DNA of 64,000 bases, from positions 950,939 through 1,014,938 of the forward strand of contig CAWCLG010000006.1 of NCBI GenBank assembly GCA_963796335.1. Direction: 5' to 3'. The notes under the pieces were generated by a model. It saw nothing but the letters and a program-made list of their open reading frames with translations. It ran no database searches and had not been told where the DNA came from. How positions within the stretch are numbered: the first letter of the stretch is position 1; every line of letters starts with the position of its first letter. Below are positions 6,700 to 61,454 of this stretch, one piece after another. The position numbers were made by a program, and so were the translations under genes. Source of the DNA: an uncultured Gemmatimonadales bacterium (GTDB lineage Bacteria; Gemmatimonadota; Gemmatimonadetes; Gemmatimonadales; GWC2-71-9).

Positions 6700-6856
6700 G
6701 TCGCCACTATCGCTGGGCCCCGGCCGCGCTTCTCCTGCTGATGGCCTGCACCGATCCCGGCGGGGCCGCCGATGCCCTACGCGACCTCGGTCTCGCGACC
6801 TTGTGCCCGGGCGGCGCAGTTCGCCACTTTCACCCACGCCTCCAGCTCGGCCGCCC

Positions 6857-7940: not shown

Positions 7941-7944
7941 CTCC

Positions 7945-13534: not shown

Positions 13535-16234
13535 TTACCTCGTGGGTTGAGATGCTGCTTTCGGCCAGTCGGACCCTGGAGCCCGATTCAGGTCGAAGGT
13601 GAACGCAAGGCCGCCGAGAGCGATATGGCTCGCGGGTATCCCTGCGGTGGACAAAGCCATTGAACGAAACTCCGCGGCGGTCTTCGAGTCGCCCAGCCGC
13701 TGGTGAGCTAACGCCACCAGGCACCGGGTCATGATGGCCGGCACTCGGTCCAGGGCCGTGGGATCGTGCTCCCCCTCCCGCGCGCTGTCGCCCAGCAGCT
13801 CGACCACGCGGGACCAGTCGCCCTTGCGCCCCGCCAGGATCGCTTCGATCGCGCGCGGGCCCTGACCTAGCCGCCCCCGGACGGCGGGCGAGAGGGCGTC
13901 GAGCCGCTTCAAGATCGCCGTAGCCTCCATCGTATCGCCCAGGAGCGCCATCCGGAGCCCTCGCTCCGTCACGGCGCCGGGCGCCGAGTCGGACTTCACC
14001 AGGGTTCCCGGGTCGATCCCCACGGCAGGAGTGGCGAACGCGAGGATGGAGCGGGCGCTCTCGTACCAGTATCGGGACGGCGGCGAGGCCTCGCGGGCCT
14101 CGCGACGCAGCAGCGCATCCGCCGCTCTCGGCGACCCCGTCGCCGCCAGCACGGCCACCCTCGCGGTCGTGGCCTCGACCCGGAGCGCCGGCGGTGTGGC
14201 GCTTCCCGCCAGCAGCGCTGCCGCCAAGCTGTCGGCCCCGCGCCAATCCGCTTCCACCAGCCGGAACCGGAGCGACGCATAGTGGGCGTACGCGCCGGTG
14301 AGGTCGCGGGCCTTGGCCCGGGCCCGGTCGAGCTGCCCCAGAGCCAGGAGCATGTCGGTCGCGTTCATGATGGCGGCCTGCGCCTCCCGGGGGCCGAACG
14401 GGCTGTTGTCGGCCGCCCCCTCGAAGTCGTCCAGCGCCGCCTGATACTTCCCCAACAGCGACAGGTAGAACCCTCGGTTGGTCCGTCCCCCGATCGAGCG
14501 CGGAGTCTCCGCCAGGTACCGGTCGTACCATTGGATCGCCTGCGGGATGTCGCGATCGAGCACGTACGCCGCGTCTCCCCGCAGCCGGTACGCCTGGCTG
14601 GTGCTGAGACGCGCCGGCCGTTTCAACGCCTCGAGGTACGCCACCCGCGCCGAGTCGAGGTTGCGCGCTTCCACATGGTTGAGGCCAATCATGGCGTAGG
14701 CTGCCGCGAAGCCGGTGTCGAGCGCGATCGCTTCCTGCAACAGATGGGTGCTGCCGGCCACGTTCCCCTGCTGCTTCTGCCCAACCGCCTCGATGTAGCG
14801 GCGGTACGCCGGCAGGGAAGGGGTGGCGATGTCGAGCAGCACCTGGTTGGCTGTCAGGTCCTCGCGGCGCTCGCCCAGGGACCGCCGCAGGTCGCGGCCG
14901 GCCCGCTCAACCGCGGGCACGAGGCTGTCTCCGCTGGCGGTGACCGTGATCGAGGCCAGGGGATCGCCGTTCTCGACGCCGACCGCCCGCACCTGTACCG
15001 AATACCCCGTCCCTCGCCGGGCGACGGTGCCGCCGATGACGACACGGATCGCGCTTCGGAACGCCAGCTCCCTCGCCAGGTCCGGGTTGACCCGGGTCGA
15101 CTCCGGCAGACCTGCGGCTCGCAGCGTGCCTGCCAGCTGCGATCGCGGCATGGTGGTCAGGTAGCGCGACTGGTTCAGCTCCGTCGTCACCAGCTCCCGC
15201 ACCGCCGTCGCCAGCGTCGGATCGCCCGCCGGGCCATCGAAATCGGAGACCAGCACCCAATCGCGCTCCCGCAGTGGCGCCGGCGATCGCCCAGCCACCG
15301 CCACACCGGCCAGCGCGGCCAGCCCCCCGACGCCCGCCACTGCCAGCCCGGTCCGCCACCATCGCGGCACCAGTCGCCGCCGGCGCCGCCGCTTGGGATC
15401 CTCCAGCGCCTGGAGAAACTCCTCGACCGACGCGAAGCGGTCGTCCGGCAACTTGGCCAGCGCCTGCTCCACGCTCGCCTCGACCGACGCCGGCAGGCCG
15501 GACCGCCGCCGGCGCAGCGGCGCGGGGATGTCCGCGGCGTGTTGCGACAGCACGGCGTGCACCGAGGAACCGTAGAACGGCGGATCGCCCGCCAGCATCT
15601 CGTACATCACGCAGGCCAGGCTGTAGAGATCGCTCCGCGGCCCTACCGTCCCTTTGCCCCAGGCCTGCTCCGGACTCATGTACTGCGGCGTGCCGACCGC
15701 CACGCCCGACTGGGTCAGCCGGCTCGCGCCGGGCTCCTCCAGCGCGAGGGCCAGCCCGAAGTCGGCGACCAGCGCGTGATCTCCCTGGAGCAGGATGTTC
15801 TCCGGCTTCACGTCGCGGTGGACCACACCCTGGCCGTGGGCATGGGCCAGCGCGGCCCCCACGTCCCGGACGATCCGGAGCGCTTCCGCGACCGGCAGCG
15901 GACCGGTCCGCTCCAGCCGCTGGCGCAGGGTCTCGCCCTCGACGAACGGCATCGTGAAGTAGAGGAGCCCGTCGGCTTCGCCCGAGTCGTGGACCGGCAG
16001 GATGCAGGGATGGTGCAGGCGGGCGGCGGTGCGGATCTCCCGGAGGAACCGGTCGGCCCCGACGACCAGCGCGATCTCCGGCCGGAGCGCCTTGAGGGCG
16101 ACCAGCCGGTCGTGCTTCAGGTCCCGGGCCAGATAGACCGTAGCGGTGGCCCCGGCCCCGAGCTGCCGCTCGATGCGGAATTCGCCCGAGACCGCCGGAG
16201 CCAGTCGCTCCAGCAGGCTTGTCGGCACCAACAC
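13535..16234 (-). CDS. Ser/Thr protein kinase with TM, periplasmic module and long TPR region
   Basis: Kinase motifs GAGATATVY, VALK, HRDVKPEN, DFG and GTPQYMSPEQ are present. TM segment WWRTGLAVAGVGGLAALAGVAVAG. TPR-like repeats run to the C-terminus. The start is placed at the GTG/TTG cluster at 16228-16234; the longer track ORF (to 16477) would overlap the divergent gene. Confidence 0.9.
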   Translation of the reverse strand: MLVPTSLLERLAPAVSGEFRIERQLGAGATATVYLARDLKHDRLVALKALRPEIALVVGADRFLREIRTAARLHHPCILPVHDSGEADGLLYFTMPFVEGETLRQRLERTGPLPVAEALRIVRDVGAALAHAHGQGVVHRDVKPENILLQGDHALVADFGLALALEEPGASRLTQSGVAVGTPQYMSPEQAWGKGTVGPRSDLYSLACVMYEMLAGDPPFYGSSVHAVLSQHAADIPAPLRRRRSGLPASVEASVEQALAKLPDDRFASVEEFLQALEDPKRRRRRRLVPRWWRTGLAVAGVGGLAALAGVAVAGRSPAPLRERDWVLVSDFDGPAGDPTLATAVRELVTTELNQSRYLTTMPRSQLAGTLRAAGLPESTRVNPDLARELAFRSAIRVVIGGTVARRGTGYSVQVRAVGVENGDPLASITVTASGDSLVPAVERAGRDLRRSLGERREDLTANQVLLDIATPSLPAYRRYIEAVGQKQQGNVAGSTHLLQEAIALDTGFAAAYAMIGLNHVEARNLDSARVAYLEALKRPARLSTSQAYRLRGDAAYVLDRDIPQAIQWYDRYLAETPRSIGGRTNRGFYLSLLGKYQAALDDFEGAADNSPFGPREAQAAIMNATDMLLALGQLDRARAKARDLTGAYAHYASLRFRLVEADWRGADSLAAALLAGSATPPALRVEATTARVAVLAATGSPRAADALLRREAREASPPSRYWYESARSILAFATPAVGIDPGTLVKSDSAPGAVTERGLRMALLGDTMEATAILKRLDALSPAVRGRLGQGPRAIEAILAGRKGDWSRVVELLGDSAREGEHDPTALDRVPAIMTRCLVALAHQRLGDSKTAAEFRSMALSTAGIPASHIALGGLAFTFDLNRAPGSDWPKAASQPTR

Positions 16235-16340
16235 TCCGTGACGGAAGAGGTTCGGTGATGCTAGCACCCGGGTGGGAGCCGGACAAGGATACCAGCGCTC
16301 CGGCGGCCGTTCTATGTTCCGTCTCCCCACTGGAGACGGC

Positions 16341-17951
16341 ATGCTCCGATTGACCACGTTCGGCGGGGTGGAGCTCCGCGAAGACGGGGCCCCCCACCTC
16401 GGCGCCGCGACCCAGCGCCGCCGCCTCGCGCTCCTCGTCCTGCTCGGCAGCGCTCGCGCGCCGGTGGCGCGGGACAAGCTGGTCGCCTGGCTCTGGCCCG
16501 ACCATCCGTCCGAGCAGGCCCGTCACTCCCTCCGCCAGGCACTGCACACCCTCCAGCGGTCGCTGCCCGGCGTGGTGCTGGTCAGCGGTGAGAACCTGGC
16601 GCTCGATCCCGCGCGCATCGCCACCGACGTGGGAGAGCTGGAGGACGCGGCGTTGGCCGGGACGGAGGACGCGATCGTCACGCTGTACCGGGGGCCGTTC
16701 CTCGACGGGTTCTTCCTGAACGACGCGCCGGCCTTCGAGCGGTGGGCCGATGGCCAGCGGGTCCGCTACGCCGGCCTCTTCACCGCGGCCCTGGAGTCGG
16801 TGGCCGGGCGCGCCGGCCGCGCCGGCAATCATGTCGAGGCGATCGGATGGTGGCGCCGGCTCACCGGCGAGGACAGCCTGAACGCCCGCTACGCCCTCGG
16901 CCTCATGCGAGCCCTTGCCGACGCTCAGGACCGCGCCGGCGCCCTCCGCTATGCGGGAGTCTATGCGGGGATGATGCGGCAGGAGCTGGGAGCCGCGGTG
17001 GATCCGGCCGTCGAGGCGTTCGCCCGCCGGCTCCGCGAGGCCGAGCCCGAGAGCGCGGAGGCCTCGACTCCGGCGCCGCTGGTCCAGACGCGGGAGCGAG
17101 CCCGGCATCGCCAGCGAACCTGGCTCGAGCGCACCTTCGCCGACCGCTACCTGCTGGCCCCGTCGTCTTCCGGGGGCACCGCCGTGGTTTCCTACCGGGC
17201 GCGACGGCTCGAGGCCGGGGACGAGGTGGAGATTCACCTGCTCGATCCCGGGCTGTCCGTCGCGGCCGATCCCGACCGGCTGCTGGCCTCCCTCGAACGA
17301 GTCGCCCAGATGCGCGCGCCGCGGATGGGACCGCTGCTCGAGGTCGGCAGTGCCGACGGCGTGGTCTACTATGTGACGTCGCGCCCGCCGGGGGAGACGT
17401 TGCGCGAGAAGCTCGGTCGAGAGCGGCAGCTGCCGTTGCCGGAGGCGGTCGCCATCACCGATGGGATCGGGGAGGCACTGGAGGCGGCCCACGCTGGGGG
17501 CGTCCGGCACGGGGACCTGCGGCCGCGGCACGTGCACGTGAATGACGGAGACGTCGTCGTGGCCGGCTTCGGGATCGCGGACGCCTTGCTCGACGCGACC
17601 CGGTCCGACCGGTCGTCCGCCATGCTCCGGTTCGGGTCGCCAGCCTATCAGAGTCCGGAACAGCTCGCGGGCGACCCACGCCTTGACGAGCGGTCCGACC
17701 TCTACAGCCTGGGCTGCATTCTTTTTGAGATGCTGGCCGGCGAGGTGCCGTTCGCCAGCGCCGACCGGCCGGCCCTGATCCACGGCAAGCTCACCGGCGG
17801 CGCCGCGTCGGTGCGCCCGCGCCGCGATTCCGTGAGCGACGCGCTCGACCAGGTCGTGAGCCGCTGCCTGGCCCGCTCTCCGGCCGACCGGTTTCCCTCC
17901 GCCACCGCTCTCCGCGCCGCGCTGCATGCCGCCACCCATCTCCCGGCCTGA
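16341..17951 (+). CDS. SARP (winged helix + BTAD) regulator fused to a degenerate kinase-like (pseudokinase) domain
   Basis: The N-terminal part reads MLRLTTFGGVELRE...QRRRLALLVLL...LYRGPFLDGFFLNDAPAFERW...YALGLMRAL. In the C-terminal domain the beta3 Lys position is VEIHLL, the catalytic loop is HGDLRPRHV and DFG is replaced by GFG. SPAYQSPEQ and DLYSLGCILFEML are retained. An alternative ATG lies at 16314. Confidence 0.85.
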   Translation: MLRLTTFGGVELREDGAPHLGAATQRRRLALLVLLGSARAPVARDKLVAWLWPDHPSEQARHSLRQALHTLQRSLPGVVLVSGENLALDPARIATDVGELEDAALAGTEDAIVTLYRGPFLDGFFLNDAPAFERWADGQRVRYAGLFTAALESVAGRAGRAGNHVEAIGWWRRLTGEDSLNARYALGLMRALADAQDRAGALRYAGVYAGMMRQELGAAVDPAVEAFARRLREAEPESAEASTPAPLVQTRERARHRQRTWLERTFADRYLLAPSSSGGTAVVSYRARRLEAGDEVEIHLLDPGLSVAADPDRLLASLERVAQMRAPRMGPLLEVGSADGVVYYVTSRPPGETLREKLGRERQLPLPEAVAITDGIGEALEAAHAGGVRHGDLRPRHVHVNDGDVVVAGFGIADALLDATRSDRSSAMLRFGSPAYQSPEQLAGDPRLDERSDLYSLGCILFEMLAGEVPFASADRPALIHGKLTGGAASVRPRRDSVSDALDQVVSRCLARSPADRFPSATALRAALHAATHLPA

Positions 17952-22587: not shown

Positions 22588-22953
22588 CTACAGATCCACC
22601 AGCGTCTTGAACCCTCCGTACGACATGCGCTTCATGTCGAACTGCTTCACCGCCGGATCCGACATCATCTTCGTCATCCGGGGGTCCTTCATAACCTTCG
22701 CGTTGACCCGGTCCCGGTGCGCCCGCGACTTGTAGACGATCCAGGAGAACACCACGGTCTCGCCGGGCTTGGTCCGCACCCGGCGAGGAAACGTGATCCC
22801 CATTCCTTTGATGTTGAGATCGTCGCCCACGCACTCGCGATACTCCAGCGCGCCGTGCTTCTTCCACAGGTTGGCCGAGGTCCGCGCTATCCGTCGGTAG
22901 ATCGAGAGTTTGCGCCGGGGTATCGGCAGCAGGAAACCGTCAACGTACGCCAT
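22588..22953 (-). CDS. DUF1428-family protein
   Basis: MAYVDGFLLPIPRRKLSIYRRIARTSANLWKKHGALEYRECVGDDL...MSYGGF is typical of DUF1428. The ORF is intact. Confidence 0.8.
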   Translation of the reverse strand: MAYVDGFLLPIPRRKLSIYRRIARTSANLWKKHGALEYRECVGDDLNIKGMGITFPRRVRTKPGETVVFSWIVYKSRAHRDRVNAKVMKDPRMTKMMSDPAVKQFDMKRMSYGGFKTLVDL

Positions 22954-23085
22954 GATTCCGCTCCGTGAATGCGAGTGAAATGATCGCTGTCCGCCAGCCC
23001 CTTGGTAACGCGAGCCGGTACAGAGCTAACGGTAATAGCGACGCGCATTTTACTGGAGGTCAGCGGGGCGTGGTCGGCGGACGGT

Positions 23086-23149
23086 GTCATCCTGAGCGAA
23101 GCGAAGGAGACCATGTCGATCTCCGCTCCTTCGCTTCGCTCAGGATGAC
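23086..23149. repeat. REP-like palindromic element (24-bp arms, 16-nt loop)
   Basis: GTCATCCTGAGCGAAGCGAAGGAG (23086-23109) pairs with CTCCTTCGCTTCGCTCAGGATGAC (23126-23149), a perfect inverted repeat. It lies in an intergenic region between two minus-strand genes. Confidence 0.85.
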
Positions 23150-23176
23150 ATGCGCTTAGGATGATATTAGCGACGC

Positions 23177-24673
23177 TTACGGCGTCCGCTCGATCTGCAC
23201 GAACACCGTATAGTTCCCCGCGAGATCGTTGTTGTCGGTGTACTGCACCGGAATGATCGTGGCGCTGGCGGCCGGCCCCAGCGCGCGCTCGATCCTCTCC
23301 CGCGTGAGCACCAGCCCCAGCGGCGCGAGCGAGTTCCCATTCGGTTGGCTCACGAACATGAGCGACAGCGGGTTGATCCCGATCGGCCGGTCCATGCCCT
23401 GACCCGGATTCATGCCGGGCTGGAACGGAAAGCCGCTCTCGTCCCGGTAGCCGAGCCACACCGGAGTGATCGGTGCCAGCCCTTGGTTGGCGTAGGCCAC
23501 GTCTCGCAGAATCGCCCCGCCGTTCGGCGAGCTCCACCAGCTCACCCAGCCCGGCAGATTCCCGGTGTTGTTCCGGTCGCTTTCCCAGATCGTCGGGTTG
23601 ACCACCACCAGCTGGCCGCTGTCCTGCAAGGTCCCCTGCCACACCAGGAGTGGGAACCGGTCCGGATAGGCCGGCGCCCCCGGCTGCGGGACGGGCTGGA
23701 ACCCCGCCGGGATCGCGTCTCCCGACATGATGCCTCCCATCGGGCTTCCGGAGCCGGCCTGGATCCGGTAGGTCGCCTGGTTGACGTCGCCGTAGATCCG
23801 CGTCTGGACCTGGGCATACGCCAGCGGCTTGTCCCGCCGGTACGGCAGCGCCACCCAGTACGCGGCCGCGTAGATCTCGTCCCGCTTGCCGTCGAAGTCG
23901 AAGGGGTCGTCCCGCGTTTCGCGCTGCGATTTTATGCCGGTGAGCAGGACGCGATACCCGCCGCTCGTAGTCCGCACGGGGGCGATGGTGGTGGCCACGC
24001 CGCTGATCCCTGCCGCGTACCGCGTCGCGATGGAGAAGGTGTGATGGCCCGGGTTGAGGCCGGTGATCACCTGGCTCGTGCCATTCACGTCGAGCCCCTG
24101 CGCCGGCAGCGTCGGGCCGAACAGGCGGTAACCGATCGCCGCCGGGATCTGATTCCAGGTCAGCTTCGCGGCTCCGGCGCTCCAGTGCCCGCCGGCGAAG
24201 CCGCCCGGCGGCGCCGGCTGTGGCGGATCGGCATAGAGATAGTCGGCGCTGCCCCGGGTGTTGTCGGGATACATCGCGACCACCCGGTAGGTCGTGCTGG
24301 GCGCCACGAAGGTGCTGTCCATGTACGCCCGGTAGCTCAGCCGGTCCGCGACCAAGACTCCCCCGGGATTCTGCTGGTTGATCTTGTAGACCTGGTAGTA
24401 GGACACGCCGTGCACCCCGTCCCAGTTCCAGGTCAAATGGTGCAGACCGGGATTGAACGTCGTCATGGCGAGTTGGACGGGCGGCGGTCCGGGCGGCGGC
24501 AGGTTCACCGGGAAGTTTCTGGGGACTCCGGACTTGTTCAGCGGGGCGGGCCCATTCACGGTCTGGATGGTGGCGCCAGAGTCCCTCGCGATTCTCTGCG
24601 CGGCGGCGGGCGAGATCGCCATCGTGACCAGGGCGGCGGCCATCCAGGCCGCGTGTCGGGGCGTCGCGGGCAT
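23177..24673 (-). CDS. secreted protein with two FN3-like domains and a C-terminal domain of unknown function
   Basis: Signal peptide MPATPRHAAWMAAALVTMAISPAAAQ. FN3-like stretches LTWNWDGVHGVSYYQVY and LTWNQIPAAIGYRLF. The ORF is intact to its stop codon. Confidence 0.65.
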   Translation of the reverse strand: MPATPRHAAWMAAALVTMAISPAAAQRIARDSGATIQTVNGPAPLNKSGVPRNFPVNLPPPGPPPVQLAMTTFNPGLHHLTWNWDGVHGVSYYQVYKINQQNPGGVLVADRLSYRAYMDSTFVAPSTTYRVVAMYPDNTRGSADYLYADPPQPAPPGGFAGGHWSAGAAKLTWNQIPAAIGYRLFGPTLPAQGLDVNGTSQVITGLNPGHHTFSIATRYAAGISGVATTIAPVRTTSGGYRVLLTGIKSQRETRDDPFDFDGKRDEIYAAAYWVALPYRRDKPLAYAQVQTRIYGDVNQATYRIQAGSGSPMGGIMSGDAIPAGFQPVPQPGAPAYPDRFPLLVWQGTLQDSGQLVVVNPTIWESDRNNTGNLPGWVSWWSSPNGGAILRDVAYANQGLAPITPVWLGYRDESGFPFQPGMNPGQGMDRPIGINPLSLMFVSQPNGNSLAPLGLVLTRERIERALGPAASATIIPVQYTDNNDLAGNYTVFVQIERTP

Positions 24674-24796
24674 CGTTCGTCCTCCTGCGTGAGTCGGCGC
24701 GGTAGCTCCAAGACCTGGATCTACATTGCGCCGGACCCGCGAAAACCCCGTCAATCGTGGTGTCAAAGTGCTGATTCTGCGGTAGTTGCCCTCCTG

Positions 24797-25369
24797 TCAG
24801 CCGGCGACCAGCGTGGCCCCTCCCGCCAGGATCAACCCGATCGCCCAGAGCAAGTCGAGATTGATCCACGCCCGCCGCAACAGCCCCACGCCGAAGATCT
24901 CGAAGACCGCTAGCGCGACGAGCCCCAGGACCAGGAACATCGCCAGCGTGTGGATGCCGAGCAGGGCCAGGCCTCGACCGAAGCCGCCCGGCCCGGACGC
25001 CAGCGCGACCGGGGCCAGCATCAGCCCGGCTCCGTGCGCGGTGCTCATGAGGAAGGACCACAGGGTGAGATCGCGGAAGCCGACCCGCATGCCGACCCAG
25101 CGGGGATGGGCCCACGGCCGGGCCAGCCGAAAGAGGCCGAACCCGACCAGCACCGCCGCCGCCGCGGTGCGGAGAGCCCCGACGGGAATCGCGAGCCGCG
25201 CCGCGTCGAGCGTCAGGAGCACCGCGCCCACCGACAGCGCGTGGCCCAGCGCGAGAGGGACCAGCGCCGCGAACACCGCCCCGCGCCTTCCCTCCTGAAG
25301 TCCCAACCCGACCGCAAACAGCCACCCCATCGCGGGGTTGATCCCGTGAAAGGCACCCAGCGCCGCCAC
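24797..25369 (-). CDS. polytopic membrane protein, family not recognised
   Basis: Five to six hydrophobic spans (AMGWLFAVGLGL, AVFAALVPLALGHALSVGAVLL, AAAAVLVGFGLF, LTLWSFLMSTAHGAGLML, ALLGIHTLAMFLVLGLVALAVF, LLWAIGLILAGGATLVAG). The GTG start at 25369 is provisional. It lies 24 bp downstream of the SBP gene. Confidence 0.55.
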   Translation of the reverse strand: MAALGAFHGINPAMGWLFAVGLGLQEGRRGAVFAALVPLALGHALSVGAVLLTLDAARLAIPVGALRTAAAAVLVGFGLFRLARPWAHPRWVGMRVGFRDLTLWSFLMSTAHGAGLMLAPVALASGPGGFGRGLALLGIHTLAMFLVLGLVALAVFEIFGVGLLRRAWINLDLLWAIGLILAGGATLVAG

Positions 25370-25392
25370 GGTGATGCCCGGCCATCCCGGGC

Positions 25393-26790
25393 TCAGGGGA
25401 AGCAATACGAGTCCGAGGAGGCGTCGCCGCCCTGGAGGCGGACCTGGTGCGGCCGCTCGCCGGAGAACTCCAGGAAGAAGTTGGGATCGGGCGTGATGCC
25501 GCCGCCGGGCTTCACGTCGACCTTGGTCATCCAGCCCTTGATCCCCTCGGGATAGAACTGCTCGTCCCACGGGATGTAGAGCGAGTTGGTGAAATACACC
25601 CGGCGGCCGTCCCGGCTCACTTCCACCATCTGGGGTCCGCCGTTGAGCGGCCCCGACGCGGGGTGCGCCGCGCGGCGAACGATGCCGCCCAGATGCACGC
25701 TGCCGGTCTGCCGCGGCTGGGCGGGGTCGCTGACGTCGTACTGGCGCAGCTCGCCGGTGCCCCAACAGGCGGCGTAGAGGAACTTGTCGTCCACCGAGAG
25801 GTCGATGTCCGACAGCAGCGGCGGCACCGCCTTGAACGGCTTGAGCGCCGGGGGCAGCAGGTCGGGATCGGCCGGCTCGGCCGGAATCTCGATGACCTTG
25901 CGGATCCCCCACTTGCCGTTGTCGCGGCTCCACATCCAGATGGACGACGACAGGTCCTTCAGGCTGATGACCACTCCCACGAAGCCGTAGCTCTTCCGCG
26001 GGTCGTGCGCGGGGCGCAGCTCGAGCACCATCTGGTCGTCCTCACCGACGGAAAGCGCCTGGAGGTGCTTCCGCCGGCGCAGGTCCCACACGTGCATCTG
26101 CCGGCCGTACTTCTTGGCCATCAGCGCTTCGGGGACCAGGCCGTTCTCCACCAGGTCGGGCGTGCCCCATTCGCTGGTGAGCATGATGTCCTGCGTCAGG
26201 TGCCACCAGGCGTCGTACGCCAGGTACTGGGGGCCCCGGTCCTTCTCCCATGGGCCGATGATATCGAAGGTGGTGTGATCCATCAGGAACACGCCGCCCG
26301 GACCGCCGCCGTCGCGCGAGCCGAGTGCGGTCACGTAGATCCCCTCGGGGCCGCAATGAATGGTGTGGGGCCTGGTGTAGCCCGACTTGCGCGCCACTTC
26401 TTCGGGCTCGATCACCTTCACGATCTTCGGCTTGGCCGGATCCGGCTTGGTGTCGAGGATGTAGATCCGGGACGACCGGAGTCCCGGCACGATGAGGAAG
26501 CGCCGCTCCATGTGCGGGTGGGGGTTCGCGGGGCAGAGCGCGGAGCTGCAGGCATTCCAGCCGAAGTGGTGTAACTCATCGCCCGGGTGCAGCATGTCGA
26601 CCCGGCCGACCGTCTTGCCGAACGTTTTCGATCCCACCTCGACGTCCACCACGACCAAGGCGTCCGGCTTGGTCCGGGTGGGATCTATGGTGACGGCGTA
26701 CGCCAGCGTCTCCGGCGGTGCCTTGGCGGCCTGGCTAGGAGAGGCATAGAAGGTGGGATCGGGGAAGACGGTGGGAGGAGAGGCGACCAT
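25393..26790 (-). CDS. selenium-binding protein (SBP56) / methanethiol-oxidase family
   Basis: PDPTFYASPSQAAKAPPETLAYAV...HHFGWNACSSALCP...RRFLIVPGLRSSRIYILD...PHTIHCGPEGIY...LYFTNSLY. The family signature runs the full length. ATG 26790 follows GAGG; the track start at 26823 is an alternative. Confidence 0.9.
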   Translation of the reverse strand: MVASPPTVFPDPTFYASPSQAAKAPPETLAYAVTIDPTRTKPDALVVVDVEVGSKTFGKTVGRVDMLHPGDELHHFGWNACSSALCPANPHPHMERRFLIVPGLRSSRIYILDTKPDPAKPKIVKVIEPEEVARKSGYTRPHTIHCGPEGIYVTALGSRDGGGPGGVFLMDHTTFDIIGPWEKDRGPQYLAYDAWWHLTQDIMLTSEWGTPDLVENGLVPEALMAKKYGRQMHVWDLRRRKHLQALSVGEDDQMVLELRPAHDPRKSYGFVGVVISLKDLSSSIWMWSRDNGKWGIRKVIEIPAEPADPDLLPPALKPFKAVPPLLSDIDLSVDDKFLYAACWGTGELRQYDVSDPAQPRQTGSVHLGGIVRRAAHPASGPLNGGPQMVEVSRDGRRVYFTNSLYIPWDEQFYPEGIKGWMTKVDVKPGGGITPDPNFFLEFSGERPHQVRLQGGDASSDSYCFP

Positions 26791-26869
26791 GGGAACCTCG
26801 GTGTAAAGGGACGGATGTCCCATTGTCGAACTCGGGTATGGCTATGTCAAGGAAGCAGCGCCCGGCCGC

Positions 26870-28342
26870 TCAGCGGATGTACCTGAGATCGAGGTCCGTC
26901 TCGCTCCGATACAGGACGTGCAGCCGCCCCGAGCCGTCCAGCGCCGCCGAGGTCCAGGTGCCGACGTCGCCCGCCTGGTCCACGGCCACCGATCGCCAGC
27001 TCGCCCCGGCGGTACAGACGGCGGTGCAGGTGGCATACTTGAGATCGCCGTTGCTGGCGTCGCGGTACACCACGTGTAGTCGGCCGTCGCCGTCACGGGC
27101 GAGCGAAGTGTACTGGCCCACGTTACCGGGCTGATCCACCGCCAGCGAGGTCCAGTTGGTCACCGTCCCGCACTGCGCGGCGCACGTCGCGTAGGTCAAG
27201 TCGCCGTTGCTGTTGTCGTAATAGCTGAGGTGGACTCCGTTGCTCCCGTCGAGCGCCATGGACGGGTTCGACCCGGCGCCCTCGTCCACGGTGATCTCGC
27301 TCCAATTGGCCGCGGTCGTGCATCCGGCGCCGCACGTCGCGTAAGCCAGGGTGGTATTGAAGGCGCGCGGCCAGGCCGCGTGAACCCGGCCGGTGCCGTC
27401 CACCGCGATGACGGCCTTCTGCGCCCCGGGTCCCAGATCGCCCAGGAGGGCACTGGTCCAGGCTTCAGGTGTGGCGCACTCCGCCTCGCAGGTGGAGTAC
27501 TTGAGGTTGAAGTTGGTGAGGTCGAAGTAGGCCGCGTGGAGCCGCCCGCCATCGTCCGCCGTAAGCGACCCGAAACCGGTGACGTTGCCGACGCTGTCGA
27601 CCGTCGCCGCCGTCCAGCTCGCGGGAGTGGTGCACGCCGCGGTACAGGTGGCGTACCGCACGTCGAGGTTGTCGATGTCGGCGTAGATCACGTGCAGGCC
27701 GCCTTCCGGGTCGATCGCCAGCGAGGCTGACTGCCCCACGTTCCCGTCCTCGTCCACGGTGATGGCCGTCCAGTTGGCGGCGGTGGCGCACTCCGACTCG
27801 CAGGTGGCGTACCGGAGATCCTCACCGGCCCCGTCCCAATAGACCGCATGCAGCCGCCCGTTCGCATCCACCGCAAGCGAGATTGCGCTGCCTTCGCCGC
27901 TCAGTTGGTCCACGGCACCCGCCTGCCAGGCCCTCGTGGTGAAGCTCCACCCCTCCGCTTCCGAGAGTGGTTCCCCTTCGTCGTCGGTGATCCCGGTCGT
28001 CAGCTCGGCCTGATACAGGGTGGCCGGCAGGAGCGGACCCACCAGCCGCGCGGTGCGGCTCCCGGCGTCATAGGTGACCGCCGTGGGGAGCGGGCTGCCG
28101 CCGGCGCGGAGGACGAAGGTCTCGGTAGTCACCGTCGCGCCGATGACGTCGCGATTGAACGACGCGGTCAGGGGGACGCCGGTCTCGACATCGTCCGCGG
28201 CATCCGCGGGGCTTACCGCCGTGACAGCAAGGGGGTCCGGCGTCGGGGAGGGATCCTGGGTGTCGTCGCCACAGCCCAGCAGGCACAGCCCCAACAGCCA
28301 GAGAGATCGGCCGGCTGAGGCGGTTGTCGTCGTGGTGGTCAT
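26870..28342 (-). CDS. lipoprotein with an Ig-like N-terminal domain and six ~45-aa YATC(x3)C...NW repeats (predicted beta-propeller)
   Basis: Lipobox LWLLGLCLLGC. Ig-like stretch LAVTAVSPADAADDVETGVPLTASFNRDV. Repeats LRYATCESECATAANW, VRYATCTAACTTPASW, LKYSTCEAECATPEAW, LAYATCGAGCTTAANW, LTYATCAAQCGTVTNW and LKYATCTAVCTAGASW, with a terminal LRYIR. Confidence 0.8.
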   Translation of the reverse strand: MTTTTTTASAGRSLWLLGLCLLGCGDDTQDPSPTPDPLAVTAVSPADAADDVETGVPLTASFNRDVIGATVTTETFVLRAGGSPLPTAVTYDAGSRTARLVGPLLPATLYQAELTTGITDDEGEPLSEAEGWSFTTRAWQAGAVDQLSGEGSAISLAVDANGRLHAVYWDGAGEDLRYATCESECATAANWTAITVDEDGNVGQSASLAIDPEGGLHVIYADIDNLDVRYATCTAACTTPASWTAATVDSVGNVTGFGSLTADDGGRLHAAYFDLTNFNLKYSTCEAECATPEAWTSALLGDLGPGAQKAVIAVDGTGRVHAAWPRAFNTTLAYATCGAGCTTAANWSEITVDEGAGSNPSMALDGSNGVHLSYYDNSNGDLTYATCAAQCGTVTNWTSLAVDQPGNVGQYTSLARDGDGRLHVVYRDASNGDLKYATCTAVCTAGASWRSVAVDQAGDVGTWTSAALDGSGRLHVLYRSETDLDLRYIR

Positions 28343-33686: not shown

Positions 33687-33800
33687 GCCTCCGATTGCCC
33701 CGGTGCCTATAGAGCAGGCGCCCTTGCATCACTCCTATTACTCCGCCCCACCTCAGGGACCCAGCGATTCGAGTGCCCACCTTCTCCCGGAGGTGCCCTC

Positions 33801-35420
33801 GTGGTCCTGTCGCCCGTTCGCACCCTCAGCGCAGGCTCCCGTCCCCGCCGTCGCCGCATCGGCATCGTAGATCTCGTCACCAAGAATCCCCGCCGCAGCC
33901 TGTACGGCCGCATCATGAATGCCAACCTCGCCAGCATCATGCCCCAGGTGCTGGCCGTCTGGAGCGAGGAGGCGGGGCACGATGTGCGCTACGTCTGCTA
34001 CACCGGCGCTGAGGATCTGCTCAGCGAGCTTCCGATTGATATAGACCTGCTCTTCATCGGCGCCTTCACCGAGGCGGCGCAGCTGGCGTATGCCTTGAGC
34101 AACCTCTTCCGGCAGCGGGGCGCGGTCACGGTCCTGGGCGGGCCCCACGCGCGCTGCTATCCCGAAGACGCTCAGCGCTTCTTCGACTATGTGTTGGGCT
34201 TCACCGACCGCCAGGTTCTCGACGAGGTGCTGGCCGAGTGCGAGCCGTCTCGACCCATCGGCCGAGTGATCGCCGCCGCCCGCCACCCTACCGACCTGCC
34301 GAGCCTGGCGGCGCGGTGGAAATTCGTCGAGGCGACCCTGGCGAAGTCGCCGGCCATCAAGATCGTGCCGATGATCGGGAGCCTGGGCTGCCCCTACACC
34401 TGCAGCTTCTGCATCGATTCGACGGTCGACTACCAGCCCCTCGGCTTCTCGGCGATGAGCGAGGACCTCGGCTTCCTGCTGACCAAGATGAAAAATCCGA
34501 TCGTCGGCTGGCACGACCCGAATTTCGGCGTGCGGTTCGACGATTACATGGACGCCATCGAGGCGGCGGTGCCGCCGGGACGCATGCGGCACATCGCGGA
34601 GAGCAGCCTCTCGCTGTTGTCGGAGCCGCACCTCCAGCGGCTCCGCCGCAACGGCTTTCAGGCGCTGTTGCCGGGCATCGAGTCGTGGTTCGCGCTGGGG
34701 AACAAGTCGAAGACCCGGCACACCGGGATGGACAAGGTGCGGCAGGTCGCCGACCACGTGAACCTGCTGCTGCGCTACGTGCCCTACGTGCAGACCAACT
34801 TCGTATTGGGGCTCGACAGCGACGAAGGGCCGGAGCCGTTCGAGCTGACCAAGCGGTTCCTGGATCTGGCCCCCGGCGCCTTTCCAGCCTATTCGCTGTT
34901 GTCGGCGTTCGGCCGCGCCGCGCCGATGAACCTGGACTACCAGCGCGCGGGCCGAGTGCTGCCGTTTCCGTTCACGTTCCTGAACAACAACCACGCGATG
35001 AATGTCCGGCCGGCGAACTATTCGTGGGTCGAGTTCTACGATCGGCTGGTGGACCTGACCAGCTACTCGTTTTCCTGGCGCGCGATCCGGCGGCGGCTGG
35101 GCGCCACCCCGGCGATGATCCCTCGCTGGATGAACGTGGTGCGCGCGATGTCGTCGGAGGGATGGGGGCGGATCGAGTACCACACGACCATCCGGCGGCT
35201 GCTCGGGACCGACCAGAGCGTGCGGGGATTCATGGAGGGGACGGAGCAGGAGCTTCCGGAGTTCTACGGCGCTCGCATTCAGCGGGATCTCGGCGAGCTG
35301 CACCGGCATCTGCCGGCCGGGGCGATCATGCACGACCCCAACGCCTACCTGAAGAGCGCCGGCGAGGCACCGGTGATTCCGCTGCAAGGCGGCCGGCGCC
35401 CGCGTGCCGCGGCTATGTGA
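33801..35420 (+). CDS. B12-binding-domain radical SAM enzyme
   Basis: The N-terminal Rossmann-like part reads RIGIVDLVTK...LLFIGAFTEAAQLAYALSNLFRQRGAVTVLGGPHA. The CxxxCxxC motif is GCPYTCSFC. The ORF is intact at 539 aa. Confidence 0.85.
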   Translation: MVLSPVRTLSAGSRPRRRRIGIVDLVTKNPRRSLYGRIMNANLASIMPQVLAVWSEEAGHDVRYVCYTGAEDLLSELPIDIDLLFIGAFTEAAQLAYALSNLFRQRGAVTVLGGPHARCYPEDAQRFFDYVLGFTDRQVLDEVLAECEPSRPIGRVIAAARHPTDLPSLAARWKFVEATLAKSPAIKIVPMIGSLGCPYTCSFCIDSTVDYQPLGFSAMSEDLGFLLTKMKNPIVGWHDPNFGVRFDDYMDAIEAAVPPGRMRHIAESSLSLLSEPHLQRLRRNGFQALLPGIESWFALGNKSKTRHTGMDKVRQVADHVNLLLRYVPYVQTNFVLGLDSDEGPEPFELTKRFLDLAPGAFPAYSLLSAFGRAAPMNLDYQRAGRVLPFPFTFLNNNHAMNVRPANYSWVEFYDRLVDLTSYSFSWRAIRRRLGATPAMIPRWMNVVRAMSSEGWGRIEYHTTIRRLLGTDQSVRGFMEGTEQELPEFYGARIQRDLGELHRHLPAGAIMHDPNAYLKSAGEAPVIPLQGGRRPRAAAM

Positions 35421-36875: not shown

Positions 36876-39149
36876 CTACGCCGGCACGCCCTCGTCCGTA
36901 AACCGCTGGTGCCGCTCCCGCGCGAACGCCATCAGCTCTCCGAACCGCGGCGTCGCCCGCACCCGCTCGAGAAACCGGTCGAACTTCGTGAAATAGACGT
37001 AGTCCACCCACCCCCGAACCCGGACCGCGTGCTCCAGCCAGCCTAGCGCCTGGCCCGTCTCCCCGACCAGCGCGTACGCCGCCGCCATCAGGTACGACCA
37101 GTACTCATCCGACTCCGCCATCGCCCGCTCCGCCGCGCTCGGCGGTGACAGCACGGCCGCCCCGATCCCCGTCAGCCCCCGCTTGAACCGCATCCCGATC
37201 GCCGCGAGGTTGTCGTCCGGCGGCTGGCGCTCCAGCCACTGGAAGTGCGTCGCCGCCTCCGCCTCGCGTCCCGCCGCCACCAGCGCGACCGCCGCGCAGA
37301 CCCGGCAGATCGTGCTCCGCGAATCCAGCTCCACCGCCCGGGCATGCGAGGGCAGGGCACCGGCGGCGTCGCCGCCGAACAGGTAGCTGAGCCCCAGCAG
37401 GCAGTGGTTGCTGGCCGTGAGCGGGTCCATCTCCACCAGCCGGGTCAGCACCTCCCGCATCGGCCCGATCCGGCCACCCAACAGGTACGCCCCCGCGAGC
37501 TGGTGCATCGCGTCGGGGTTGTTGGGGTCGGCCGCGCAGGCCTGGCTCAGCAGCCGGACGGCCTCGCCCGCCTGCCCTCGGCGATATGCCACCTGTCCCA
37601 TGATCGAGAGGCCCTGCGCCGAGCCCGGGTTCAGCTCGAAGGCGCGCCGGGCGCAGGCCTCCGCCTCCCGCAGCGTGGTCTCCTCGTCGGCGCCGATGAA
37701 CACCGGCGACCAGGCATAGACGGTCCCCAGGATCCCGTAGAGCGCCTCGTTGGGGCCGACTACGCTGAGGCCGTGCTCCGCCAGCGCTTTCGCCGCCTGG
37801 ATCCCCTCGGAGCTCTGCCGGTAGTACTCTTGCCGCGCGCGCTGGTAGTACTCGAACGCCCTGACGTCCGCCATCGGCCGGTCGGCGAGGTCGCGGTCCT
37901 CCGGCGGGGTGAGGGTGATCCGGAGCGCCTCCACGATCCTTCGCGAGAGCTGCTCCTGGAGGTCGAACACGTCCTCCACGGTGCCGGCGTACTTCTCCGA
38001 CCACAGGGGCGCGTCGGTCTCGATGTCGATCAGCTGGGCCGTGATCCGGAGCGCAGAGCCGGCCCGGCGGACGCTGCCCTCCAGCGCGTAGCGCACGCTC
38101 AGCTCGCGCCCCATCCGGCGGAGGTCCCAGCCGGTGTCCTTGAGCTTCGCGGACGAGGTGCGGGAGATCACCGTGAGCGCCCGGACCCTTGAGAGGTCGG
38201 CGATCACCTCTTCCATCAGGCCGTCGGCGAAATACGCGTCGCCCGGATCGGGGCTCAGGTTGGCGAACGGCAGCACCACGATCGCCTTCTTCGCCGGCGC
38301 GGCCTCGACGTCCGGGGCCTCCAGCGCCGCGAGGAACTCCGGGATCGCCGCGTAGCGGTCCGCCGCCACCTTGGATAGCGCGCGTTCCACCGCTCGCCGT
38401 ATCGATCCGGTCACGCCCGGCCGCAGCGTGGTGATCGGCGGCACCGGGTCGAGCACCTGCCGCGCCAGCACCGCGCCGGCGGTTGGTCCGGTGAAGGGCG
38501 GCTGCCCCGCGAGCAGCTCGTAGAGGACGCAGGCGAGGCCGTACTGGTCTGCCCGGCCATCCACATCGCGGCCGCCCTCGGCCTGCTCGGGACTCATGTA
38601 CGCCGGCGTGCCGAGGCCCACGCCGGCCTGGGTGAGCTGATGACCGGCCGCGTCGCCGACCGCGCGCGCGATCCCGAAATCCGCCACCAGGGCGTGCCCC
38701 TGGGAGAGCAGCACGTTCTCCGGCTTGACGTCGCGATGGATCAGCCCCTGGCCGTGGGCGTAGTGGAGCGCTTCGCCGATCTCCCGCACCAGGCGCAGCG
38801 CCTCCGGCATCGAGAGCGGGCCCTCGCGGGTGAGCCGCTGCCGCAGCGTCTCGCCCTCGACGAAGGGCATGACGTAGTACGGCCTGGGGGAGGCTTCGTC
38901 GGTGGCGCCGGAGTCGAGCAGGGCGAGGATGTTCGGGTGCTGGAGACGGGCCAGGATCTGGATCTCGAGCAGGAAGCGCTGGGCGCCGGCGCCGACCACG
39001 ATCTCCGGACGCATGACCTTGATGGCGACGGGGCGGTCGTGCTTGCGGTCGCGGGCGAGATAGACCACGGCCATCCCGCCCCGGCCCAGCTCGCGGTCCA
39101 GCGCGTAACGGTCCCCTAGCGCGAGGTCCTGGTCGGCAGGGTGTAGCAT
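36876..39149 (-). CDS. Ser/Thr protein kinase with a TolB-like module and TPR sensor region
   Basis: Kinase motifs GRGGMAVVY, VAIK, HRDVKPEN, DFG and GTPAYMSPEQ. Then AIVVLPFANLSPDPGDAYFADGLMEEVIADL...LRITAQLIDIETDAPLWSEKY, followed by TPR repeats. Confidence 0.9.
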   Translation of the reverse strand: MLHPADQDLALGDRYALDRELGRGGMAVVYLARDRKHDRPVAIKVMRPEIVVGAGAQRFLLEIQILARLQHPNILALLDSGATDEASPRPYYVMPFVEGETLRQRLTREGPLSMPEALRLVREIGEALHYAHGQGLIHRDVKPENVLLSQGHALVADFGIARAVGDAAGHQLTQAGVGLGTPAYMSPEQAEGGRDVDGRADQYGLACVLYELLAGQPPFTGPTAGAVLARQVLDPVPPITTLRPGVTGSIRRAVERALSKVAADRYAAIPEFLAALEAPDVEAAPAKKAIVVLPFANLSPDPGDAYFADGLMEEVIADLSRVRALTVISRTSSAKLKDTGWDLRRMGRELSVRYALEGSVRRAGSALRITAQLIDIETDAPLWSEKYAGTVEDVFDLQEQLSRRIVEALRITLTPPEDRDLADRPMADVRAFEYYQRARQEYYRQSSEGIQAAKALAEHGLSVVGPNEALYGILGTVYAWSPVFIGADEETTLREAEACARRAFELNPGSAQGLSIMGQVAYRRGQAGEAVRLLSQACAADPNNPDAMHQLAGAYLLGGRIGPMREVLTRLVEMDPLTASNHCLLGLSYLFGGDAAGALPSHARAVELDSRSTICRVCAAVALVAAGREAEAATHFQWLERQPPDDNLAAIGMRFKRGLTGIGAAVLSPPSAAERAMAESDEYWSYLMAAAYALVGETGQALGWLEHAVRVRGWVDYVYFTKFDRFLERVRATPRFGELMAFARERHQRFTDEGVPA

Positions 39150-45575: not shown

Positions 45576-45841
45576 TCCTTGATTTCGGCAGGAGTCATCC
45601 CCGGCGTTACGCCCGGTATGGAACTCCGCAGCGAGTGGAGGGGGCAAAGTCGGGGATCGGATGGCATGGAGCTATGATGGGGATCACCAAAGCCGGGCTT
45701 TTCACCGAATTCACCCGCCAGGGAGCAAATGCCCGCTTGACACCGGCTTGACAGCCGCGTCCCACTCTCCTCTCTTGGGGCCACTCCCGCACCCACATCT
45801 CATCCCAAGACCGTGCCCCGCCCACGCGAGGGAAAGTCCAG

Positions 45842-53120: not shown

Positions 53121-54566
53121 TCACTCCAGGTAGCGGAGGTCCATGTCGTCCTGGCCCTGGTACGCCACCGCCACCCGGCCGGTTCCATCGACCGCGATGG
53201 AGGTGTACTGCCCCACCTGGCCGTTCTGATCCAGCCCCGCGGTCTGCCAACCGCCTTCGGTTGTGCAGGCCGCGGCGCAGGTCGCGTACATGAGGTCGGC
53301 GTTGGTGTCATCGTAGTAGCTGATGTGCAGACGGCCGCCGTCATCCAGCGCGAGCGACGCGAATCTGCCCGCATTCCCGGTCCCGTCGACGATCACCGAG
53401 GTCCAGTTGGCCTCGGTGGTGCACTCTGAGGCGCACCCGATATATCGGAGCTCGTCGTTACGGCGGTACGCGATGTGAATCCCGCCGCTGGGATCCGCCT
53501 TGAGACTGGAATAGATGCCGAGGTCGTCGATAGTGATGGCCGTCCAGTTGGCGTCGGTGGTGCATCCGGCGGCGCACGTGGCGTACTTGAGGCTCGCGGC
53601 GGTGAACTCGTGGTAGCCGATGTGGAGGCGTCCCGTACCATCGATCGCGATCGAGGCGGAAAAGCCGCCCCCGGCGGTCAGGTCGATCCCGCCGGAAGTC
53701 CAGTTGCCGGCGTCGGTGCACTCCCCGCCGCAGGTGGCGTATTTGAGCTCACCGTTGTCGAGGTCGTAGTAGCTCGCGTGGAGTCGTCCGTTCGACCCGA
53801 TCGCCAGCGTTCCGTAGAGTCCGACGTTGCCCGGTTCATCAACCGCCACGGTGGTCCAGTTGGCCGCGTTGGTGCAGTCGGCGGCGCAGGTGGCGTACTT
53901 GAGATCCTCGTTGATTCCATCCACGTAGGTCACATGCAGCCCGCCGTTCGCGTCCGCCACGATCGACGGGTTCAGGCCCACGATTCCGTCCTCGTCCACC
54001 GTGACTCCCGACCAGCTGGCCGCGGAGGTGCAGTCCGCGCTGCAGGTCGAGTATCGCAGCCGGCTGCCGATCTGCTCGTAGTGGGCGACGTGACGCACGC
54101 CATCGCCGTCCAGCGTCAGGGAAGCCGTGAATCCCGCGGATCCATCCGCTTCCGCCGCGACTGCCTGGGGCGCCCCGGTGGTGAAGGTCCATTCCTCCGG
54201 CGCCGACAAAGGACCGCCGTCCTCATCGGTGATGCCCTCCGCCAGGTCGACCTGGTACTGGCCCAGCGGCAGCAGCGGAGCCACCAGGCGCGCGGTGCGG
54301 GTCGCGTCGTCGTAGGTCACGCCGGCCGGGAGGGGATTCCCGCCGGCCCGGAGCCGGAAGGTCGCCGCGTTCAGCGTCGCGGGATCGAGCGGCCGGTTGA
54401 AGGTGGCCGTGACGGAGACGCCGAAGGGGACCGCGTCGGCGCCGTCGGCTGGGCTCACGGCGGTCACCGCCAGCGGGTCGGGCTCCCCGGGATCGTTCGA
54501 GTCGCTGCCGCAGGCGGGCAGGAGGCTTAGCAAAAGACAGAACAGCAGGTTGGCGATCCGTCGCAT
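53121..54566 (-). CDS. paralog of 26870..28342, a lipoprotein with an Ig-like domain and six YATC(x3)C...NW repeats
   Basis: Lipobox LLLSLLPAC. Repeats LRYSTCSADCTSAASW, LKYATCAADCTNAANW, LKYATCGGECTDAGNW, LKYATCAAGCTTDANW, LRYIGCASECTTEANW and LMYATCAAACTTEGGW, with a terminal LRYLE. Confidence 0.8.
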   Translation of the reverse strand: MRRIANLLFCLLLSLLPACGSDSNDPGEPDPLAVTAVSPADGADAVPFGVSVTATFNRPLDPATLNAATFRLRAGGNPLPAGVTYDDATRTARLVAPLLPLGQYQVDLAEGITDEDGGPLSAPEEWTFTTGAPQAVAAEADGSAGFTASLTLDGDGVRHVAHYEQIGSRLRYSTCSADCTSAASWSGVTVDEDGIVGLNPSIVADANGGLHVTYVDGINEDLKYATCAADCTNAANWTTVAVDEPGNVGLYGTLAIGSNGRLHASYYDLDNGELKYATCGGECTDAGNWTSGGIDLTAGGGFSASIAIDGTGRLHIGYHEFTAASLKYATCAAGCTTDANWTAITIDDLGIYSSLKADPSGGIHIAYRRNDELRYIGCASECTTEANWTSVIVDGTGNAGRFASLALDDGGRLHISYYDDTNADLMYATCAAACTTEGGWQTAGLDQNGQVGQYTSIAVDGTGRVAVAYQGQDDMDLRYLE

Positions 54567-61284: not shown

Positions 61285-61350
61285 GGCGGTTCCTCGGTGT
61301 TGGGCGGATTGCGCGGCCCGACCCGCGCGCCTACCGTAAGAGACCGGCAC

Positions 61351-61407
61351 AGTATGCCGGTCCCCCGTCTCCGCATCGCCCCCTGTCCGTCACTCGGCAG
61401 GTGACGT
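61351..61407 (-). promoter_or_regulatory. conserved promoter block with GTCAC-N7-GTGAC palindrome (copy C), in a divergent intergenic region
   Basis: In gene orientation it reads GACGTCACCTGCCGAGTGACGGACAGGGGGCGATGCGGAGACGGGGGACCGGCATACT. The palindrome lies about 50 nt upstream of the divergent SARP-AAA-TPR gene. Confidence 0.45.
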
Positions 61408-61454
61408 CTTGAGCGCAGAGCCAGCAGTGGCCGGGCTCGTCCGGGTCCGGACCC

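Follow-up and report, generated by a model that had tools for sequence, protein, structure and literature searches.

Beta-propellers of the BNR_4 type occur in several carbohydrate-active enzymes, including members of GH145 (the alpha-L-rhamnosidase BT3686, structures 5MUK and 5MUL; BACCELL_00856; BACINT_00347; 4IRT), PL42 (FoRham1) and the PL24 and PL25 ulvan lyases. These enzymes consist of seven four-stranded blades and share the motif S-(I/L)-x-(V/L)-D-x-x-G-x-(L/I)-H-(V/L)-S-(Y/F/W)...L-x-Y-A. Their blades are irregular, their insertions are long, and a single asymmetric active site relies on His, Arg and Tyr residues specific to individual blades. Catalytic residues are His48 in BT3686 and His85, His105, Arg166 and Tyr202 in FoRham1 (PMC8377490). 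Independently, a sequence cluster overlapping BNR_4 was singled out as a candidate adhesive domain in fibrillar adhesins (PMC9210967). The Photorhabdus “bangle” lectins (PLL, PHL and PLL2-5; 8Q82, 8Q81, 6RG2, 5MXH) are highly regular propellers of seven contiguous blades of about 47-48 amino acids, described as contiguous A-B-C-D W-motifs W1-W7 (PMC6943638). They bind sugars between blades via conserved Trp residues, the fucose pocket being composed of two Trp and Thr (PMC5584973), and provide a natural model for multivalent inter-blade binding. Here we analyse two paralogous genes, ORF A and ORF B, contained in a stretch of 64,000 nucleotides (hereafter the window; 68.4% GC) from the genome of an uncultured Gemmatimonadales bacterium (assembly GCA_963796335.1, contig CAWCLG010000006.1, positions 950,939 to 1,014,938).

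The products of both genes are related by sequence to GH145 and other BNR_4 proteins and, by fold, are closest to the PLL/PHL lectins. They belong to a real, uncharacterised family, which is a regular Cys-linker variant of the BNR_4-type blade and neither a new fold nor a new class of propeller. We favour, with modest confidence, the view that A and B are lipid-anchored, Big_5-stalked, seven-bladed BNR_4-type propellers with Cys-stapled linkers that would serve as non-enzymatic, multivalent binding modules of the cell envelope. Their features are the following, in window coordinates unless residue numbers are indicated:

26870..28342, minus strand: ORF A, 490 amino acids, with signal peptide and lipobox, Big_5 domain and seven-bladed propeller
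28271..28342, minus strand: ORF A, predicted signal peptide (residues 1-24) closing with the lipobox L-L-G-C24, read directly from the sequence; predicted local confidence (pLDDT) below 50 at residues 1-21
27935..28234, minus strand: ORF A, Big_5 bacterial Ig-like domain, putative stalk (residues 37-136; PF13205, 54.2 bits against 23.6)
27818..27937, minus strand: ORF A, first blade unit, without Cys (residues 136-175; W139..VD / SLAVD / RLHAVY), matching positions 13-52 of a blade hidden Markov model (HMM)
26873..27817, minus strand: ORF A, six L(K/R)YATC-x3-C..NW units of 50-52 amino acids and a final DLRYIR strand (residues 176-490), from the sequence and the blade HMM
Residues 181/185, 233/237, 285/289, 337/341, 387/391 and 439/443: Cys pairs of ORF A
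53121..54566, minus strand: ORF B, paralog of ORF A with the same architecture, 481 amino acids
54510..54566, minus strand: ORF B, predicted signal peptide (residues 1-19) closing with L-P-A-C19, from the sequence, with a modelled helix at residues 2-14
54177..54479, minus strand: ORF B, Big_5 Ig-like domain (residues 30-130; PF13205, 58.8 bits against 23.6)
53124..54167, minus strand: ORF B, seven-bladed propeller (residues 134-481), with seven blade-HMM matches, 28 strands and a Foldseek match to PLL3
Residues 175/179, 227/231, 279/283, 331/335, 378/382 and 430/434: Cys pairs of ORF B

A and B are 50% identical over 467 amino acids (E=7e-156). An initial annotation, made from the DNA alone, had rightly described them as paralogs with a lipobox, an Ig-like domain and six YATC-x3-C...NW repeats, and the motifs that it cited (CESEC, CTAAC, CAADC) are all found among the C-x3-C motifs, of which each protein has six. 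The Big_5 model is covered over its full length in both proteins, with scores well above its gathering cut-off of 23.6 bits. The N-terminus of A contains R12, a hydrophobic core and L-L-G-C24; that of B contains RR, a hydrophobic core and L-P-A-C19, with a non-canonical Pro at position -2. Taking as criterion a signal peptidase II (SPase II) lipobox, [LVI][ASTVI][GAS]-C, placed after an N-terminal signal peptide, both are predicted lipoproteins. A lipobox-type Cys, mostly in the form LAAC, ALAC or ALGC and then followed by Gly, is present in 79 of the 94 members of the alignment that defines the family (the wider superfamily being represented by a set of 247 proteins). The two proteins end with LRYIR and LRYLE.

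The internal repetition of the C-terminal region goes far beyond chance, since the two halves of the A propeller align with a score of 128 bits (46.5% identity, E=5.5e-43) and a shuffled second half never exceeded 25.8 bits in 200 trials. The consensus of 76 blades, LKYATCAxxCTxAANWxxxxVDxxGxVGxxxSLAVDxxGRxHVxYxDxxNxD, agrees with the one proposed initially. By contrast, the period was first estimated at about 45 amino acids; the repeats of A and B are spaced by 47-52, and 309 of 508 family intervals measure exactly 52. The blade HMM, from which the repeats of the window itself were excluded, detects seven units in A, seven in B and seven in 92 of the 94 relatives. The seventh unit lies upstream of the first repeat and is partial, without the YATC-x3-C segment (in A, residues 136-175, i-E 2.7e-12; in B, residues 134-165, i-E 1.2e-07, model positions 17-48). 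AlphaFold2 models based on deep alignments (A, pLDDT 91.9 and pTM 0.89; B, pLDDT 93.3 and pTM 0.90) contain 28 strands beyond the Ig domain, that is, seven blades of four strands, those of the first unit of A extending over residues 141-146, 152-158 and 164-170. Foldseek searches with these closed propellers gave PLL/PHL lectins as best matches for both (A, E=1.3e-17; B, with PLL3, E=4.6e-18), with TM-scores of 0.74-0.78 on the target, a root-mean-square deviation of about 4 Å over about 345 columns and 15-21% identity. Behind them came GH145 and PL42 structures (for A, 5MUM at 4.8e-13, 5MUL at 1.0e-12 and 7ESK at 2.5e-11; for B, 5MUK at 1.4e-12), as well as sialidases and the CV39L lectin. 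A and B thus have seven blades and not six, the count obtained when the Cys-less N-terminal unit was overlooked, and all their nearest folds are seven-bladed.

The models also inform about propeller closure. According to the strands and loops assigned by DSSP, hairpins of 4-5 amino acids link NW..VD with SLAxD, SLAxD with LHVxY and LHVxY with LRYATC in both proteins, and the only long connection, of about 10 amino acids with a helical turn, follows the strand that carries the first Cys. Because of these short hairpins and the single long connection, the models are most naturally read as showing blades in which NW..VD, SLAxD, LHVxY and LRYATC follow one another in an unbroken meander of four strands, without velcro, and in which C-x3-C belongs to the outer-to-inner linker between blades. 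All 28 strands would be used, therefore leaving none spare for exchange, and the C-terminal LRY would be the outer strand of blade 7; the velcro closure initially attributed to this terminal strand is, to judge from the modelled loop lengths, probably wrong. A six-bladed, velcro-closed propeller made of a repeat unrelated to known families would account for the six YATC-x3-C motifs plus a terminal LRY strand, and no Pfam repeat family exceeds its threshold in A or B. Nevertheless, seven HMM units, 28 strands and exclusively seven-bladed nearest folds, together with a loop-length pattern that leaves no free strand and the inclusion of the blade in a BNR_4-linked superfamily, make it very improbable. 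Another part of the same proposal, a lipoprotein whose Ig-like stalk bears a closed beta-propeller, is supported.

Regarding sequence relationships, a homolog search with the A propeller retrieved 450 relatives, almost all of them metagenomic, the named ones being Gemmatimonadales. The Pfam model BNR_4 (PF15892; cut-off 27.3 bits) scores 27.2 bits in A and 22.6 bits in B, and matches 51 of the 94 relatives at E<=1e-3, with the best score in P0030 (54.2 bits) and scores of 37-38.5 bits in P0015, P0021 and P0077. Cys-free relatives attain 90.8 (P0196) and 72.3 bits (P0212), and the propellers of P0138, P0146, P0128, P0144 and P0182 have no meaningful Pfam match. The best NCBIfam match of A is NF053835, the “PDIAV motif-containing lipoprotein” (PDIAV_lipo; 43.3 bits, E=3.2e-11), which scores 28.3 bits in B and matches 31 of the 94 relatives. 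Like A and B it is a lipoprotein, and its multi-blade region matches theirs, but it represents a different family, as these scores are far below its equivalog cut-off of 90. When a profile of Cys-free blades was compared with the sequences of the Protein Data Bank (PDB), it matched the GH145 structures 5MVH, 5MUM, 5MUK and 4IRT (E=1.3e-6 to 1.8e-5), over four blades in each. Searches of the same sequences with A, the family profile or a Cys-free relative gave nothing or weak GH145 matches, and PLL lectins were not found by any profile search of PDB sequences. Designed TIM barrels, matched in HMMER by Cys-free propeller or profile queries with E down to 2e-5, were discarded as artefacts of repeat periodicity and call for caution in the automated annotation of this blade superfamily.

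The initial inability to place the repeat in a named family was justified with respect to Kelch, PQQ, WD40 and NHL, but the repeat is only in part undescribed, given the BNR_4 matches of its relatives and the GH145 match at E=1.3e-6. The blade does not correspond to the BNR/sialidase Asp-box, S-x-D-x-G-x-T-W: in S32-L-A-V-D36-x-x-G39-R-x-H42 the S-D and D-G spacings differ and T-W is missing. A match to a well-described Pfam repeat family, which the initial annotation had named as evidence against novelty, was half found, BNR_4 being just below cut-off in A and recognised in 51 of the 94 relatives. No curated model is dedicated to the C-x3-C linker variant, and we found nothing relevant in the literature on PDIAV, on the motif strings or on propeller lipoproteins of Gemmatimonadetes.

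The blade itself is far from rare. A profile of the 52-amino-acid blade, searched against 1.84 billion representative proteins, matched 24,098 clusters (at 50% identity) with E<=1e-3 and 14,045 with E<=1e-10. The number of matched stretches per protein peaks at 7, 14, 21, 28 and 35 and, because these counts fall on multiples of seven, the superfamily is predicted to include proteins with up to five tandem seven-bladed propellers. One of them, P0121, has 3511 amino acids and 35 blades, with Cys-rich spacer modules in between. Among 127 new top matches of the profile, 101 lack C-x3-C and 15 carry it in all their linkers, the other 11 combining both conditions within one propeller. Cys-free blades, with a LKYATNxSGSW linker, repeat every 47 amino acids and C-x3-C blades every 52. 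The largely unannotated Cys-free members (consensus WxxxTVDSxGxVGxYTSLALDxxGxPHISYYDxTNxDLKYAxxxGxx) resemble the blades of A and B position for position and also occur in multiples of seven. They differ in having a linker five residues shorter, without the Cys pair, and in being mostly giant multi-propeller surface proteins instead of lipoproteins of about 490 amino acids.

What sets the family apart is its Cys pairs. All 565 aligned blades of the 94-member family have Cys at positions 6 and 10; exactly six pairs occur in 88 of 92 proteins, the propeller has exactly 12 Cys in 86 of 94, and in the alignment the Cys positions of the A propeller either do not vary or reach a conservation of 90% or more. 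The strict spacing pointed out initially, suggestive of disulfide or metal sites, is hence supported; the location of one pair in each blade is not, as there are seven blades and six pairs, which lie in the six inter-blade linkers. In the wider superfamily (247 proteins), 1,110 linkers have no Cys, 855 have two and 94 have one, and C-x3-C is the spacing in 798 of the 855 two-Cys linkers. The C-x3-C linker is five residues longer than the common Cys-free linker YATNxSGxW, and its positions 7-9 and 11-14 are highly variable in blades of the family. A single propeller combines Cys-free (YATDKSGSW) and C-x3-C (YATCSSSCSSASSW) linkers in P0128, P0135 and P0141. Because of this co-occurrence within single propellers, both linker types are considered structurally interchangeable.

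In an oxidising compartment, the most probable state of the two Cys is a local disulfide, which would staple the linker, since they occur as both or none, with fixed spacing, in even number, in proteins of predicted extracytoplasmic location and in interchangeable linkers. Alternatively, the six C-x3-C loops might be functional metal-binding or redox sites, for instance of a Sco-like Cys2 + His kind, instead of structural disulfides. The absolute invariance of both Cys in the family would fit this idea, as would the conserved His42, situated one tight hairpin before the Cys strand, and several neighbouring genes: SBP56 and a SCO4226-like protein in the window, a CsoR-like repressor, a P-type ATPase and Nramp near P0048, and a Cu-oxidase near P0098. 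However, no neighbour recurs across loci, the loop contains no third or fourth conserved ligand, and an even Cys count in an extracytoplasmic protein is typical of disulfides. Linker types also swap within single propellers. Moreover, in the 247 proteins the residue at position 42 of the preceding blade is His before 81% of Cys-free and 87% of C-x3-C linkers; as it is about equally conserved beside both types, His42 seems to be a general feature of the blade. We consequently deem metal or redox sites improbable.

One observation counts against the stapled-linker reading. His42 is present in 79-87 of 92 proteins for units 1-6 and in 54 of 92 for unit 7, and blade 7 (residues ~472-480 in A) is the only one without a C-x3-C after it, the other conserved positions holding there. 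This drop could hint at a relationship between His and Cys. The co-variation figures lead us to reject most of the case for a Cys2His metal site, which the decrease in blade 7 would still favour. A more daring version of the idea would be a ring of six Sco-like Cys2 + His metal or redox sites on one face of the propeller, defining a new class of multivalent metal- or thiol-reactive surface lipoproteins. Its footprint would be the lower His conservation confined to the one blade with no C-x3-C after it, and we give it a slightly smaller chance than metal or redox sites in general.

Coming back to a stapled binding module, its operation might be envisaged as follows. After cleavage of the signal peptide, the lipobox Cys of A and B would be lipidated; the Big_5 Ig-like domain would then act as a stalk bearing a nearly perfectly pseudo-symmetric seven-bladed propeller, six of whose outer-to-inner blade connections, with their invariant C-x3-C, would be stapled by disulfides; and the propeller would work at the cell envelope as a multivalent lectin- or adhesin-like binder, with no glycosidase or lyase role. 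Both the lectin- or adhesin-like function and the cellular location are predictions from sequence. The symmetry of the blades is one argument for such a module. In the family alignment, no residue is at least 80% conserved in one blade only, and blade identity is 0.47 within proteins and, between proteins, 0.44 for blades of the same number and 0.43 for blades of different number. As no blade has private conserved residues, an active site of the GH or PL type is unlikely and a pseudo-symmetric binding module is favoured; the latter is likewise suggested by the variable loops on an invariant scaffold, seen in the position entropies, and by the stalk, the lipid anchor and the existence of giant surface-protein relatives.

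This symmetry bears directly on whether the propeller could be a single-site carbohydrate-active enzyme comparable to the GH145 rhamnosidase or the PL24, PL25 and PL42 lyases. GH145 proteins are the only solved relatives detectable by sequence, 51 of the 94 members have weak matches to BNR_4 and to the NCBIfam BT3686 model, and Foldseek reaches GH145 and PL42 at E~1e-12. Nonetheless, the known enzymes need blade-specific residues, and the window proteins have near-identical blades without private residues and with C-x3-C in every linker. His90 and His110 of BT3686 align to blade positions 28 (Gly) and 48 (variable), which are not His in the family. The NCBIfam rhamnosidase model (AlphRhmnaseBT3686), with weak matches among relatives, reaches 28.3 bits, its cut-off being 700. 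An enzymatic role is accordingly rather improbable.

The lectin comparison has its own difficulties, and three observations count against a PLL-like glycan-binding role for the module. At the alignment level, the blades of the family have one conserved Trp column, the invariant W16, and no second one, such that the two-Trp pocket of PLL lectins, which lies at blade junctions, is not conserved. The NCBIfam model of these lectins (beta_propeller_lectin, cut-off 200 bits) gives 9.1 bits in B (E=0.63), no match in A and weak matches in 13 of 94 relatives, with a best E of 7.9e-6. Finally, gene neighbourhoods are not conserved, so that their context does not corroborate a glycan-related role. PLL and PHL also differ from A and B in being soluble non-lipoproteins without Ig stalk and without C-x3-C, the Cys of PLL forming inter-subunit bridges. 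In principle, the propeller could instead be a structural or protein-interaction platform without glycan ligand, for example an accessory lipoprotein similar to BamB or TolB or a component of a surface layer. This would agree with its predicted lipoprotein nature, with symmetric blades conserved only at core positions, with the several paralogs per genome, some in tandem, and with the absence of a glycan-utilisation context. Still, no partner gene is conserved, the nearest folds are lectins, and the propeller also ends giant multi-Ig surface proteins of archaea and bacteria, in which outward binding appears more natural. We thus regard a platform as unlikely, though less so than an enzyme.

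The taxonomic distribution was explored by scanning genomes with a 19-sequence alignment whose pattern contains the Cys motif, which biases the taxon list towards C-x3-C bearers. Beyond Gemmatimonadota, the C-x3-C propeller was detected in Poseidoniales/Marine Group II archaea (loci L019-L022, L024, L025, L027, L028 and L030), in Nitrospirota/Nitrospirae (L026) and in Omnitrophota (L023). The archaeal relatives, of 1654-2397 amino acids, contain an RCC1 propeller and as many as 14 He_PIG domains. The Nitrospirae relative in L026 has 1841 amino acids and CarboxypepD_reg repeats; the RibLong domain is also among the partners of the propeller in these giant archaeal and Nitrospirota proteins. Judging from its sequences, the compact lipoprotein subfamily is mainly from Gemmatimonadota and has an invariant Cys pair in every inter-blade linker.

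Family members are often clustered or in tandem along a contig: two occur in L001 (1378-3856), three in L003 (4721-7359 and 12184-13356) and two in L035 (5739-8275), and the two copies of the window are 25 kb apart. A 94%-identical contig is the only other place where the gene order GroES-GroEL-A-SBP56 was found; the genes around other homologs are unrelated, without any recurring context. A tblastn comparison of all window neighbours with 36 loci revealed one shared gene, coding for a BTAD/TPR regulator, in L034. In the window, this BTAD + TPR regulator-like protein is encoded at 49783-52122 (minus strand), about 1 kb from B; its homolog in L034 (3947-6157; 36% identity, E=7e-136) is about 0.8 kb from a family member, and it is not in the other 34 loci. 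Small ORFs beside the shared regulator are unrelated. This sharing probably reflects local synteny and not a functional link. Attempts to derive a function from operon structure failed, as no neighbour is conserved across loci.

The gene following A, together with a predicted promoter in the gap between both, is described by two further features:

25393-26823, minus strand: SBP56 (selenium-binding protein / methanethiol-oxidase family), 618 bits, 46 bp downstream of ORF A
26822-26850, minus strand: strong predicted sigma-70-like promoter TTGACA-17-GACAAT, 10 of 12 matches, occupying the gap between A and SBP56 and ending 1 nt before the annotated ATG

The position of this promoter suggests that SBP56 has a leaderless transcript or that its translation truly begins at the Met 11 codons further on. 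In the 94%-identical metagenome contig (L031, 9521-10953), SBP56 appears as two ORFs of 310 and 167 amino acids, compared with an intact one of 476 in the window, which looks like a frameshift or an assembly error. Elsewhere in the window, five long ORFs on the minus strand (14907-17939, 22887-25385, 33753-35387, 45800-47728 and 61331-63082; 544-1010 amino acids) have no Pfam match at E<=1e-5. With 68% GC and long overlapping ORFs on the other strand, some of them may be wrong-strand predictions; the one of 832 amino acids has an 88%-identical stretch in L031. Four further ORFs of the window (36876-39149, minus; 57048-59396, plus; 6803-8914, plus; and 10317-11453, minus) comprise a WYL-WCX protein, two proteins with Ser/Thr kinase + TPR and an ORF with a match to copper amine oxidase, limited to the C-terminal half of the latter (model positions 203-405 of 407).

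This family does not overturn current understanding. It belongs to a very large and poorly annotated blade superfamily, for which the coverage that Pfam offers through BNR_4 is patchy, and a dedicated blade model would better annotate many environmental genomes. The natural interchange of putatively stapled and unstapled linkers makes these proteins a neat case for the study of propeller stability. For Gemmatimonadota and the archaea of Marine Group II, they also offer a candidate surface lectin or adhesin that is amenable to study. If they are indeed lectins or adhesins, they would be candidates for mediating the attachment to polymers or cells of abundant, poorly cultured soil and marine lineages.

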